This document shows positions 53,435 to 58,235 of a stretch of DNA of 64,000 bases, in pieces. The notes beneath the pieces are model-generated. The model made no database searches. It was given only the letters and a program-made list of their open reading frames with translations, and had not been told where the DNA came from. How positions within the stretch are numbered: position 1 is the first letter of the stretch; every line of letters starts with the position of its first letter. Position numbers and translations under genes: made by a program. Location: assembly GCF_029227855.1 (NCBI RefSeq), contig NZ_CP074356.1, one strand, 5' to 3'. This DNA comes from Escherichia coli. GTDB lineage: Bacteria; Pseudomonadota; Gammaproteobacteria; Enterobacterales; Enterobacteriaceae.

Positions 53435-55132
53435 ATGAAATCCCCCGCAGCTTCTCGCCCGCTAAAAATGGCGTTAATTCCAGCCTGCATTTTTTTGTGT
53501 TTCGCTGCGCTATCGGTGCAGGCAGAAGAAACACCGGTAACGCCACAGCCGCCTGATATTTTATTAGGGCCGCTGTTTAATGATGTGCAAAACGCCAAAC
53601 TTTTTCCGGACCAAAAAACCTTTGCCGATGCCGTGCCGAACAGCGATCCGCTGATGATCCTTGCTGATTATCGGATGCAGCAAAACCAGAGCGGATTTGA
53701 TCTGCGCCATTTCGTTAACGTCAATTTCACCCTGCCGAAAGAGGGCGAGAAATATGTTCCGCCAGAGGGGCAATCACTACGCGAACATATTGACGGACTT
53801 TGGCCGGTATTAACGCGTTCTACCGAAAATACCGAAAAATGGGATTCTCTGTTACCGCTGCCGGAACCTTATGTCGTGCCGGGCGGACGTTTTCGCGAGG
53901 TATATTACTGGGACAGTTACTTCACCATGTTAGGACTTGCCGAAAGCGGTCACTGGGATAAAGTCGCGGATATGGTGGCCAATTTTGCTCATGAAATAGA
54001 CACTTACGGTCATATTCCCAACGGCAACCGCAGTTACTATTTAAGTCGCTCGCAGCCGCCCTTCTTTGCCCTGATGGTAGAGTTACTGGCGCAGCATGAA
54101 GGTGATGCCGCGTTGAAGCAATACCTGCCGCAAATGCAAAAAGAATATGCTTACTGGATGGACGGTGTTGAAAACCTGCAAGCCGGACAACAGGAAAAAC
54201 GCGTTGTAAAACTTCAGGATGGTACCCTTCTCAACCGCTACTGGGACGATCGCGATACGCCACGACCAGAGTCATGGGTGGAAGATATTGCCACCGCCAA
54301 AAGCAATCCGAATCGACCTGCCACTGAAATTTACCGCGACCTGCGCTCTGCCGCTGCGTCTGGCTGGGATTTCAGCTCGCGCTGGATGGACAACCCGCAG
54401 CAGTTAAATACCTTACGCACCACCAGCATCGTACCGGTCGATCTGAACAGCCTGATGTTTAAAATGGAAAAAATCCTCGCCCGCGCCAGCAAAGCTGCCG
54501 GAGATAACGCGATGGCAAACCAGTACGAAACGCTGGCGAATGCCCGTCAAAAAGGGATCGAAAAATACCTGTGGAACGATCAACAAGGCTGGTATGCCGA
54601 TTACGACCTGAAAAGTCATAAAGTGCGCAATCAGTTAACCGCGGCCGCCCTGTTCCCGCTGTACGTCAATGCGGCAGCGAAAGATCGCGCCAGCAAAATG
54701 GCGACGGCGACGAAAACACATCTGCTGCAACCAGGCGGCCTGAACACCACGTCGGTGAAAAGTGGGCAACAATGGGATGCGCCAAACGGCTGGGCACCGT
54801 TGCAGTGGGTCGCGACAGAAGGGTTACAAAACTACGGGCAAAAAGAGGTGGCGATGGACATTAGCTGGCACTTCCTGACCAATGTTCAGCACACCTATGA
54901 CCGGGAGAAAAAGCTGGTGGAAAAATATGATGTCAGCACCACCGGAACAGGGGGCGGCGGTGGCGAATATCCATTACAGGATGGCTTTGGCTGGACCAAT
55001 GGCGTGACGCTGAAAATGCTGGATTTGATCTGCCCGAAAGAGCAACCGTGTGACAATGTTCCGGCGACGCGTCCACTCAGTGAATCAACAACACAGCCGC
55101 TAAAACAAAAAGAGGCGGAACCTACGCCTTAA
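53435..55132 (+). CDS. treA: Periplasmic trehalase TreA
   Basis: 565 aa from ATG at 53435 with AAGGAGA SD; signal peptide then glycoside hydrolase family 37 core. Confidence 0.95.
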
Positions 55133-55146
55133 CTTTACTGTATATC

Positions 55147-55189
55147 GAGCAATGCCATTACGTGCATAAAATTGGCATTGCTCTTTCTT
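55147..55189 (+). terminator. treA rho-independent terminator
   Basis: 11 bp stem GAGCAATGCCA / TGGCATTGCTC followed by TTTCTT. Confidence 0.65.
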
Positions 55190-55397
55190 CATCACGAAAT
55201 ACCAAATACCACTCTTTCTACGGTCTATGCCTTTATTTTCTTTTATTAGAGAAGATTTTAATTTTATTTTATCAACTTGTTAATCATTACACCTCTATTT
55301 ATATTTTCCCCCACTCCCCATTCTCCCTGACAATTTTCTTGTGGAACAAAGTGTTATTTAAGAAACAAGCAAATCATTCTGTCTCTTTAGACAAATT

Positions 55398-55444
55398 TTG
55401 ACATCAAACATGATCTTTTTCGCTATATGTGTAAGTATATAGCG
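55398..55444 (+). promoter_or_regulatory. Candidate promoter (-35 TTGACA at 55398-55403) with overlapping ModE-type operator palindrome CGCTATAT-N8-ATATAGCG (55421-55444)
   Basis: Palindrome fits the ModE consensus as I recall it (CGnTATATA-N6-TATATAnCG) at 17 of 18 specified positions; lies 25 bp upstream of the ATG of the first island gene. Confidence 0.6.
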
Positions 55445-55468
55445 GTTTTAATTATCAGGATATTACTT

Positions 55469-56491
55469 ATGTCACTAACCAGACGGAGGTTTACACAGAT
55501 TCTTGCGTCGACATTGTTCCTGCATCATCTGCCGTCCTTTGCACTATCAGTCAAATTCTGGGCCTCACTGACGCTTCCCGAAGCCCAAAACATTACACGC
55601 ATCGTCAGCGCAGGCGCGCCCGCCGATTTACTATTGCTGGCTGTCGCGCCAGAAAAAATGGTCGGTTTTTCCTCTTTTGATTTTGCCCGTCAGGCATTAA
55701 TTCCATTGCCAAAGCACATTCGCCAGTTCCCCAGGCTGGGACGACTCGCCGGGCGCGCCAGCACACTCTCGCTGGAAGGGCTTATGGCGTTACATCCCGA
55801 TTTGGTCGTTGATTGCGGCAATACGGATGAAACCTGGATCTCCCAGGCACGGCAGGTTAGCGAACAGACACAAATACCCTGGTTATTGCTTAACGGGAAA
55901 CTGGAACAATCAGCAGAACAGTTAACAACGCTTGGCAAAACGTTAGGCGAAGAGCACCGCACCGCAGAACAAGCCAATCTCGCCAGCCGCTTCGTTGGTG
56001 AAGCTCAGGCATTCGCCACCTCACCCGCCGCTAACCTCAGCTTTTATGCTGCGCGCGGTCCTCGAGGGCTGGAAACGGGCTTACAGGGTTCGTTGCATAC
56101 CGAGGCGGCGGAATTATTAGGTTTGCACAACGTCGCGCAAATAGCCGATCGCCACGGTCTGACACAGGTTTCCATGGAAAATCTCCTGCGCTGGCAGCCG
56201 GATATTATTCTGGTTCAGGAGGCCGTTACTGCAGATTTTATTCGTCGTGATCCTCTCTGGCAGGGCGTGAAAGCGGTTGCGGAACAACGCATCTTATTTT
56301 TAAGTGGCCTGCCCTTTGGCTGGCTGGATGCCCCGCCGGGAATCAACCGTCTTCTGGGATTACGCAGACTTCACGCCTGGCTGGATCCCGCCATCAATCG
56401 CCAGTTTAAAAGTGACATGCAGCATTACGCCCAACTGTTCTGGCATTGCCTATTAAGTGACGCCGACTATCAAAAATTGGTGGCGAGCTAA
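55469..56491 (+). CDS. Periplasmic substrate-binding protein, TroA/FecB/BtuF-like (class III), with twin-arginine signal
   Basis: MSLTRRRFTQILASTLF... signal with RRRF motif; ~340 aa; architecture of metal-chelate/cobalamin binding proteins; ORF track version starts 14 codons upstream. Confidence 0.8.
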   Translation: MSLTRRRFTQILASTLFLHHLPSFALSVKFWASLTLPEAQNITRIVSAGAPADLLLLAVAPEKMVGFSSFDFARQALIPLPKHIRQFPRLGRLAGRASTLSLEGLMALHPDLVVDCGNTDETWISQARQVSEQTQIPWLLLNGKLEQSAEQLTTLGKTLGEEHRTAEQANLASRFVGEAQAFATSPAANLSFYAARGPRGLETGLQGSLHTEAAELLGLHNVAQIADRHGLTQVSMENLLRWQPDIILVQEAVTADFIRRDPLWQGVKAVAEQRILFLSGLPFGWLDAPPGINRLLGLRRLHAWLDPAINRQFKSDMQHYAQLFWHCLLSDADYQKLVAS

Positions 56492-57471
56492 TGAGAACCG
56501 TAAACGGATGTATTTTGCTGCTGGCAGCTATCAGTATCACTTTTGCCGCCGTAAGTGGGGCTTATCATCTCGATATACAGCAACTGCTGGCGCTCATTCT
56601 TCGTCAAGAAAATGTTCCTGTGCAGGAACAAATTGTCTTCTGGCAAATCCGCGTGCCGCGTATTCTTGCTGCGCTGTTTCTGGGCGCGGCGCTGGCAGGG
56701 GCCGGAACCACCTATCAGGGAATGTTCCGTAATCCCTTAGTGTCACCGGATATTTTAGGCGTCTCCGCCGGTGCCGGACTTGGTGCCTGCGCGGCAATCC
56801 TGTGGGGATTATCCATTGTTTACATCCAGCTGTACGCATTTTGCGGCGGGCTGATGGTGGTCGCGGGCGTCTGGTTGATTACGCGTCGGGTGACCCGCCA
56901 CGATCCGATCTTAACCCTGGTGCTGGTAGGCATTGCGTTAGGAACGTTGTGCGGAGCGGGGATATCGCTAATAAAAACGCTGGCCGATCCTTACACCCAG
57001 TTACCGTCAATTACCTTCTGGTTGCTGGGGGGGCTGTCCACCGTGACCTTACGCGATCTCTGCTATGCTGCACCGATCATTCTCATAGGCTCCTTGCCCC
57101 TGTTTTTTCTCCGCTGGCGTATGAATTTACTCACGCTTTCCGACGACGAAGCCCGTTCGCTGGGACTGAACGTGACACGTCTGCGCTTTGGATTAATTGT
57201 CTGCGCCACACTAATCACCGCCAGCACGGTAGCAATAGCGGGCATAATTGGTTGGGTCGGCCTGGTCGTTCCGCACATTGCCCGCTTGTTGACCGGTCAT
57301 AACCATCAGCAGCTGTTGCCCATGGCAATGTGTACTGGCGCGATTCTGCTCCTGCTTACCGATACGCTGGCACGCAGCATTGGAACAACAGAAATCCCAC
57401 TTGGCATTCTGACCGCTTTTGTTGGTGCACCGTTTTTCCTGTTTTTGTTGTTACGCGGAGGTCGCCAGTGA
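56491..57471 (+). CDS. ABC transporter permease, FecCD/BtuC family
   Basis: 326 aa polytopic membrane ORF whose start overlaps the upstream stop; glycine-rich TM segments typical of FecCD permeases. Confidence 0.82.
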   Translation: MRTVNGCILLLAAISITFAAVSGAYHLDIQQLLALILRQENVPVQEQIVFWQIRVPRILAALFLGAALAGAGTTYQGMFRNPLVSPDILGVSAGAGLGACAAILWGLSIVYIQLYAFCGGLMVVAGVWLITRRVTRHDPILTLVLVGIALGTLCGAGISLIKTLADPYTQLPSITFWLLGGLSTVTLRDLCYAAPIILIGSLPLFFLRWRMNLLTLSDDEARSLGLNVTRLRFGLIVCATLITASTVAIAGIIGWVGLVVPHIARLLTGHNHQQLLPMAMCTGAILLLLTDTLARSIGTTEIPLGILTAFVGAPFFLFLLLRGGRQ

Positions 57472-58226
57472 CTTTGCTTGCCGTCCGTCATGCGTCTCTG
57501 GGTTACTCCCGCCATCCGGTGCTACGCGACGTGTCCTTCACCCTGTCGCAAGGAACAATTTGTTGTCTGTTAGGAGCCAATGGTTGCGGCAAAACCACAC
57601 TCATGCGCTCCATTCTTGGCGTTATACCGTTATTAAAAGGCGAGATCTTACTGGATAGCCTCCCTGTGCAGACACTCAGCCATCGCCAGCGCGCGCAGGC
57701 TATTGCCTGGGTGCCGCAGGCGCACGACGGCATTTTTGCTTTTAGTGTGCTGGATATGGTGTTGATGGGCCTGGCCCCCACCATAGGCGCTTTTTCCGTT
57801 CCCGGTAAGCAAGAACGCCTGAAAGCAACGGAGCAACTGGAAAAGCTGGGCATTTTGCATCTGGCGACACGACGCTGGAATACACTTAGCGGCGGTGAAC
57901 GTCAGCTGGCTTTAATCGCCCGTGCACTCGTCCAGCAACCGCGCTTGTTATTACTGGATGAGCCTGCCTCCAGCCTCGATTTCGGTCATCAGATCCAACT
58001 ACTGGACACGCTGGCGCAGCTCAAAAATAACGGCATGACAATGCTAATGTCGACTCATCATCCGCTCCATGCCAACGCCATTGCCGACAGCATTATCCAG
58101 GTAGAGCCAGATGGACGAGTAACACAAGGCTTACCGACCGAACAGTTAACAACGAACAAACTGGCTGCCCTGTACCGGGTTTCTGCCGACCAGATTCATC
58201 ATCACCTCTCTGCAATTAGCCACTAA
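57468..58226 (+). CDS. ABC transporter ATP-binding protein (FepC/FecE/BtuD-like)
   Basis: GTG start overlapping the permease stop (GTGA); Walker A GANGCGKTT, ABC signature LSGGERQ, Walker B LLLLDEP; 252 aa. Confidence 0.85.
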   Translation: MTLLAVRHASLGYSRHPVLRDVSFTLSQGTICCLLGANGCGKTTLMRSILGVIPLLKGEILLDSLPVQTLSHRQRAQAIAWVPQAHDGIFAFSVLDMVLMGLAPTIGAFSVPGKQERLKATEQLEKLGILHLATRRWNTLSGGERQLALIARALVQQPRLLLLDEPASSLDFGHQIQLLDTLAQLKNNGMTMLMSTHHPLHANAIADSIIQVEPDGRVTQGLPTEQLTTNKLAALYRVSADQIHHHLSAISH

Positions 58227-58235
58227 GGAACAATC

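Follow-up and report, generated by a model that had tools for sequence, protein, structure and literature searches.

In a 64-kb stretch of Escherichia coli chromosomal DNA (from contig NZ_CP074356.1; the whole stretch is referred to as the window and is numbered from its first letter), a palindrome at 55421-55444 lies just ahead of a six-gene operon that encodes an importer, a TonB-dependent receptor and the ModD protein. This palindrome is very probably a binding site for the molybdate-sensing regulator ModE on the operon promoter. The best explanation overall, and one that can be held with good confidence, is that a ModE operator lies across the core promoter, that molybdate would repress the operon through it, and that the operon would serve the acquisition of molybdenum or tungsten rather than iron. 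Operators of this class have long been known. The novelty is in the target, an island that is widespread among pathogenic and commensal lineages and absent from strain K-12, carries a TonB receptor and ModD, and owes its iron label to homology.

The operator core (55421-55444, assigned to neither strand) is the 24-mer CGCTATATgtgtaagtATATAGCG = CGCTATATGTGTAAGTATATAGCG, with arms that may be written as CGCTATAT-N8-ATATAGCG. The 8-nt arms are exact reverse complements around an 8-nt centre, a geometry shared with the modA, moaA, and dmsA operators, and the dyad symmetry of the 24-mer suits a ModE homodimer. A first-pass annotation of the same DNA, made from the letters alone, had placed a TTGACA hexamer at 55398-55403 and a palindrome with exactly complementary arms at 55421-55444, and both were found at those coordinates. 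The ModE consensus that it used also agrees with the published E. coli consensus, ATCGNTATATA-[N6]-TATATANCGAT, i.e. atCGnTATATA-N6-TATATAnCGat (PMC545781). The site matches 17 of the 20 specified positions of this 28-mer consensus. In the short form of the consensus, CGnTATATA-N6-TATATAnCG, there are 16 specified positions of which 15 are matched, the mismatch being G55429 in place of A. A near-perfect match had been correctly recognized; the figure given for it, 17 of 18, had wrongly counted two N positions and is properly 15/16. The site is also a short distance upstream of the first ATG as described, with 24 nt between the operator and the ATG (55469-55471).

Two alleles of the operator are present in E. 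coli. The window and ST131 have CGCTATATGTGTAAGTATATAGCG, and O157:H7 and Nissle 1917 have CGATATATATGTAAATATATAGCG, which fits every specified position of the short consensus. Within the box, the alleles differ at 55423, 55429, and 55435; the promoter stretch that was compared (141 bp, 55340-55480) has six differences in all.

A symmetrised weight matrix was built from four K-12 ModE operators (NC_000913.3) with the candidate site excluded. The four were those of modA (gtCGTTATATTGTCGCCTACATAACGtt), moaA (gaCGCTATATACATGATTACATAGCGaa), dmsA (ttCGATGTATACAAGCCTATATAGCGaa), and napF (atCGCTATATAAATATATTTATAACCat). The candidate, scored as the 28-mer at 55419-55446, reached 24.1 bits, and the known operators reached 17.9-25.3 bits when left out of the matrix one by one. 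The runner-up position in the window scored 11.7 bits. The first-pass annotation had proposed scoring the site against the same four operators, and the site comes out of that comparison far above background. A degenerate ModE pattern was found once in the window, with the remaining matches all needing three mismatches. From the exact score distribution, the probability of such a score is approximately 3e-9 per position, which corresponds to an expected 0.016 sites per 5.1 Mb at 50% G+C and 0.15 at 35% G+C.

The strongest support short of experiment comes from other genomes. Eighty loci, one genome per species and 1.217 Mb altogether, were retrieved from gamma-, alpha-, and beta-proteobacteria by alignment of binding-protein orthologues and were scanned with the K-12 matrix at a cutoff of 17 bits. 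While 0.1-3 matches would be expected by chance, depending on G+C content, 49 matches of at least 17 bits were obtained, and 46 of these lie within 400 bp upstream of the binding-protein or receptor gene of the system. The remaining three comprise two sites before modABC in Rhodomicrobium and one before a moeA-like gene in a Hyphomicrobiaceae assembly. Taxa that bear the box include Escherichia, Citrobacter, Enterobacter, Klebsiella, Raoultella, Erwinia, Pantoea, Serratia, Shewanella, Rhizobiales, Caulobacterales, and Lautropia. Among the Enterobacterales and Shewanella, the box is at the same place in nearly all of the loci fetched from these groups, and the genes follow in the order binding protein, permease, ATPase, methyltransferase, ModD (optional), and receptor. 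The box stands 30-46 nt before the first start codon in Escherichia, Citrobacter, Yokenella, Enterobacter, Klebsiella, Raoultella, Symbiopectobacterium, Serratia, Erwinia, and Pantoea. When 17 Enterobacteriaceae sequences were aligned, the column identity was 0.90 in one arm and 0.96 in the other, as opposed to 0.46-0.56 in the flanks.

Gene order varies among the taxa, and the box stays with whichever gene leads the operon. Caulobacterales, Hyphomonadaceae, and Lautropia have the receptor gene in front, preceded by a ModE-like box (locus positions L044:5735, L074:5699, L075:5796, and L050:5390); these receptor-first boxes score 12.7-21.6 bits, with the L075 box falling under the 17-bit cutoff. 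Shewanella fodinae, S. indica, and Serratia sp. H1w carry an additional box, of 24-31 bits, immediately ahead of the receptor gene (L034:11738, L040:11677, and L032:9059). Genes of molybdenum metabolism are found next to the system as well. In five alpha-proteobacterial loci it is adjoined by modA(BC) (L048, L051, L057, L058, and L066), and in one Lysobacteraceae assembly the methyltransferase gene is followed by a gene for a di-Mop molybdate-binding domain (L045:11728-12141) that corresponds to ModE residues 123-258. The box thus tracks the transport system across three proteobacterial classes and through rearrangements of gene order. Taken with the K-12-only matrix and the modA-like position, this conservation in the orthologous promoters of many genera supports the assignment of the palindrome as a ModE operator.

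The operon is carried by a variable segment at 55134-61871 (assigned to neither strand; OI#55 / S-loop#83) that was delimited by blastn against K-12 and by a published description (PMC1890555). The segment lies between treA and ymgE, where K-12 has a stretch of approximately 620 bp with ycgY instead. About 2140 of 5426 complete E. coli genomes (39%) have the whole segment, ST131, O157:H7, and Nissle 1917 among them. A foreign origin was considered from base composition and rejected, as the segment is not marked as foreign. According to the RefSeq annotation, no regulator gene is encoded within the segment. The modE gene is a core gene present in 5391 of the 5426 genomes, with its locus outside the window. 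In O157:H7 strains F7349 and Sakai (L086 and L088), the treA gene adjacent to the island carries a frameshift, and IS629 interrupts ycgR.

All six genes run in the same direction (+ strand) and are tightly packed. The first encodes a periplasmic substrate-binding protein of the PF01497 family (RefSeq; ECs1699/Z1966, 55469-56491), for which the PDB matches include 4PAG (2e-25) and MolA (HI1472; 1.7e-7 over 73 residues only). Its amino terminus, MSLTRRRFTQ (55469-55500), presents a twin-arginine-type signal motif (TRRRF). The second gene encodes a FecCD/BtuC-type permease (ECs1698/Z1965, 56491-57471) whose best solved relative in a PDB search was HI1471 (MolB; E = 5.9e-65), ahead of FhuB, HmuU, and BtuC. 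It is followed by genes for an ATP-binding cassette (ABC) ATPase labeled fepC (ECs1697/Z1964, 57468-58226) and a class I S-adenosylmethionine-dependent methyltransferase labeled yc73 (ECs1696/Z1963, 58236-59048), the latter being kept in the operon from Escherichia to Shewanella. The fifth gene product, ModD (ECs1694/Z1962, 59045-59899), is quinolinate-phosphoribosyltransferase-like; it exceeds the cutoff of the TIGR01334 modD model by a wide margin (501.6 bits, cutoff 178.85) and its PDB relatives are quinolinate phosphoribosyltransferases. We know of no function that has been assigned to the ModD family. The last gene, labeled prrA, encodes the TonB-dependent receptor (ECs1693/Z1961, 59925-61895), for which no close characterised relative was found. 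A weak matrix match recurs within the receptor coding sequence (window 60782, e.g. TACGCTGAAAAGCCGTCTGTATCGCGAC; 6-17 bits), at about +5330 from the start of the binding protein in many loci, and looks like conserved coding sequence rather than an operator.

With modD, a MolB-like permease, and modABC or Mop neighbours in other taxa, the operon looks like a system for the acquisition of molybdenum or tungsten, and it is probably not an iron system. The first-pass annotation had considered molybdate-dependent repression of a TonB-dependent transport operon to be an unusual regulatory logic. This view was not sustained, since the gene content of the operon makes sense of such regulation.

From the site and its genomic setting, we infer a mechanism of the following kind. 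When cytoplasmic molybdate is sufficient, a molybdate-ModE dimer would occupy the two CGnTATAT arms and block RNA polymerase, as it does at modABC. When molybdate is scarce, ModE would come off and the operon would be expressed, so as to provide a route from the outer membrane to the cytoplasm for molybdenum and possibly tungsten, perhaps as a chelate. The distance between the operator and the ATG is 24 nt here and 19 nt at modA, which is repressed; at activated targets it is approximately 70 nt (dmsA), 180 nt (moaA), and 210 nt (napF). Since the 24 nt must also accommodate the Shine-Dalgarno sequence (AGGA at 55457-55460, + strand, 8 nt before the ATG, with CAGGA conserved in the alignment), there is no room for a promoter and the box would have to overlap the -10 region or the start site. 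Repression by promoter occlusion is thus the best inference from the position of the site, and it agrees with the reported molybdate-dependent repression of molB in Haemophilus influenzae. An in-frame ATG further upstream at 55427 was considered as the start and rejected, with both RefSeq and the orthologue alignment backing 55469.

Some points weigh against this reading. At position 55429, the window allele departs from the consensus and from most relatives (G instead of A), and the matrix is based on four sites only. The overlap with the promoter is deduced from geometry and not from a mapped transcription start. The presence of the site does not prove the direction of regulation, since ModE acts as an activator at several of its targets. 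With respect to the substrate, the resemblance of the binding protein to MolA is weak and the receptor lacks a close relative that has been characterised.

The sequence upstream of the operator adds a further element. At 55398-55411 (+ strand), TTGACATCAAACAT combines TTGACA with a conserved CA and may be regarded as a candidate FNR-type box (TTGAT-N4-ATCAA) or as an unusual -35 element. The first-pass annotation took TTGACA to be a perfect -35 hexamer. The hexamer is present, but a plain -35 role is improbable, as it has no acceptable -10 partner at 16-18 nt and is conserved as an FNR-like TTGAy-N4-nnCAw pattern. A consensus scan identified no usable -10 hexamer 16-18 nt downstream of TTGACA, which leaves its role as a -35 unproven. 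A plain sigma-70 promoter built on TTGACA was rejected for the same reason; TATATG would need a 20-nt spacer. Among the Enterobacteriaceae orthologues, the TTGAy-N4-nnCAw pattern is kept at an invariant offset from the ModE box. The TTGA and the CA are invariant in the 17 Enterobacteriaceae sequences, 23 nt before the CG of the box, and these conserved positions fit FNR half-sites. The match to the FNR consensus is 7/10 in the window allele and 8-9/10 in the orthologues. In Yokenella and C. koseri, the 14-mer TTGATACTGAACAA is one base off TTGATACCGAACAA of the K-12 dmsA promoter, which we take to be the FNR box there. TTGACA is therefore probably no simple -35 and resembles an FNR box, which suggests that anaerobic activation may be combined with repression by molybdate.

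The spacer of the operator (55429-55436, + strand) is GTGTAAGT in the window and ATGTAAAT in most relatives. While the ModE consensus leaves the spacer positions free, the column identity of the spacer in the 17-sequence alignment is 0.93. The spacer may hold an extended -10 element, TGtAAATAT, or TGtAAGTAT in the window allele. Class II FNR promoters have their FNR box centred at about -41.5 relative to the start of transcription. As a hypothesis, an FNR dimer near -41 and a start near 55446 would place the ModE box at approximately -25 to -2. A layout with FNR and an extended -10 would explain why the spacing is fixed and why the spacer is conserved. Erwinia, Pantoea, Klebsiella sp. BIGb0407, and Serratia sp. 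H1w have a different layout, a canonical TTGACn-17-CATTAT promoter whose -10 hexamer is the left end of the ModE box.

Two observations concern the DNA upstream of this promoter. A 66-codon hypothetical gene of Sakai, ECs_5716, maps to about 55161-55361 (open reading frame 55162-55401) on the upstream side of the operator and on the same strand, and is probably spurious. In strain MSB1_4I (L089, 7288-7985), homology to the promoter begins at window position 55392, just before TTGACA, and is adjoined by an IS1 transposase gene; the upstream DNA has been replaced while the box and the operon are intact. A second copy of the promoter in this strain was rejected, the partial second match being the IS1 insertion just upstream.

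Several other explanations may be considered. ModE may bind the site and activate the operon, or both repress and activate, as at moaA, dmsA, and napF. ModE is annotated as a dual regulator, the dmsA and napF boxes are equally good, and a true promoter situated downstream of the box would permit activation; however, no promoter fits between the box and the ATG, and the layout copies that of modA. An uptake system induced by plentiful molybdate would make little physiological sense, and the related molB of H. influenzae is repressed by molybdate. Activation is for these reasons considered unlikely. The combination of a FecCD-type transporter and a TonB receptor is typical of siderophore systems and the published label is "possibly mediating iron uptake" (PMC1890555, PMC12928451), so that a Fur-controlled iron uptake system could be envisaged in which the palindrome is incidental or bound by another factor with an AT-palindrome. 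A Fur-consensus scan of the window revealed no convincing Fur box in the operon promoter or before the receptor gene. Ahead of the operon, in a region of 69% A+T, matches reach 13/19 at most, with 22 equally good ones elsewhere in the window, and not even such a match precedes the receptor gene. The label derives from homology only. Given the conserved ModE box and the molybdenum genes found as neighbours, Fur control is quite improbable. The best Fur-like site in the window, GAAAATGATAACCAGTATC (44364-44382, 16/19), is located between ychF and an autotransporter-like gene in the ycgV region.

The palindrome could also act as RNA, in the form of a hairpin followed by a T-run that serves as a terminator or attenuator, for example against read-through from treA. 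A consensus scan did flag 55420-55445 with TTTTAATTAT as terminator-like, and the RNA is predicted to fold at -10 kcal/mol. This fold is weak, with a z-score of -1.8, only three G-C pairs, and 7 of 200 shuffles folding as well. What is conserved are the specific letters of the ModE box and not mere pairing; in the O157/Nissle allele, position 3 (A) and position 22 (G) are unpaired. The same box also precedes receptor genes, modABC, and moeA in distant taxa, the site is approximately 290 bp past the treA stop (treA ends at 55132), and at most half of the palindrome would be transcribed under any plausible promoter model. Given the weak hairpin and the sequence-specific conservation, the terminator was rejected as very improbable. 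A riboswitch was rejected as well, since an Rfam search of 55000-62300 was empty even at E <= 1 and included no molybdenum cofactor riboswitch. Lastly, the palindrome could be a chance AT-rich sequence that has no function, as an intergenic region of 69% A+T favours TATA-like palindromes. When this 335-bp region was shuffled, the score of the site was reached in 2 of 20,000 shuffles, and the box has been kept in three proteobacterial classes amid diverging flanks. From the conservation data, a chance origin is effectively refuted.

A ModE operator that would repress the operon may be compared with systems already described. Like the modABC operator, the site is a 24-bp CGnTATAT-N8-AYATAnCG dyad, 19-24 nt before the start codon of a binding-protein gene and, as judged by geometry, over the core promoter; both operators would answer to one core-genome regulator. 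The site is nearer the ideal palindrome than that of modA. In contrast to modABC, the system here consists of a type II (BtuCD-like) importer together with a TonB-dependent receptor, ModD, and a methyltransferase, and is found on a variable island absent from K-12 with an operator that is perhaps paired with an FNR-like box. At the dmsA and napF promoters, a ModE box is known together with an FNR-type box, which resembles the candidate pair. There, ModE contributes to activation from a box outside the core promoter, whereas here the box would cover the -10 region.

The MolBC-A system of H. influenzae (HI1470-HI1472), a low-affinity type II ABC importer of molybdate and tungstate, has the same ABC architecture and provides the closest solved relative of the permease; the binding protein matches MolA weakly and 4PAG better. 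Repression of molB by molybdate has been attributed to an "unknown factor", with no regulator or operator reported (PMC4031551). Among the Pasteurellaceae orthologues of the present system, weaker ModE-like palindromes are located just upstream in Lonepinella (L041, position 7937, 12.8 bits) and Pasteurella langaaensis (L065, position 7960, 16.5 bits). On the basis of these orthologues, ModE may be the factor that represses H. influenzae molABC.

The genes of the segment are the same as those of the prrA-modD-yc73-fepC cluster of the uropathogenic strain CFT073 and of OI#55 in O157:H7 (ECs1693-1699, Z1961-Z1966), at the same position between treA and ymgE. The cluster was given this name and a possible role in iron uptake in earlier reports (PMC1890555, citing Guyer et al. 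1998; PMC12928451, 2026). A literature search joining ModE, modD, and TonB found nothing relevant, and a search by locus tags returned only comparative-genomics mentions and one uninformative transcriptome note, with no regulation described. No link of the cluster to ModE or molybdenum was found in the literature searched; the genome-wide ModE-site survey of Studholme and Pau (2003) and the report of Guyer et al. (1998) were outside that search, and an earlier prediction is possible. Studies of the ModE regulon have centred on K-12, and since K-12 lacks the island, this target would have been missed.

A broader proposal may be put forward tentatively, with somewhat less than an even chance of being right as a whole. 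The prrA-modD-yc73-fepC cluster would be a TonB-dependent molybdenum or tungsten system that is repressed by ModE and perhaps activated anaerobically by FNR. It may import a chelate that is processed by ModD and the methyltransferase, and ModE would be the "unknown factor" of H. influenzae.

Molybdenum is generally taken to cross the outer membrane passively, and molybdoenzymes are important to anaerobic respiration when the gut is inflamed. If the present reading is true, it would point to an energy-dependent uptake of molybdenum or tungsten across the outer membrane, and the operon would represent the first dedicated outer-membrane route for molybdenum in enterobacteria. ModD would be placed in a defined genetic and regulatory context, in an organism amenable to experiment. 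A cluster that has been treated for more than 25 years as a putative iron system would be reassigned to molybdenum or tungsten, and the "iron uptake" or virulence-associated marker that it has provided in uropathogenic, avian, and enterohaemorrhagic E. coli would need to be re-labelled.
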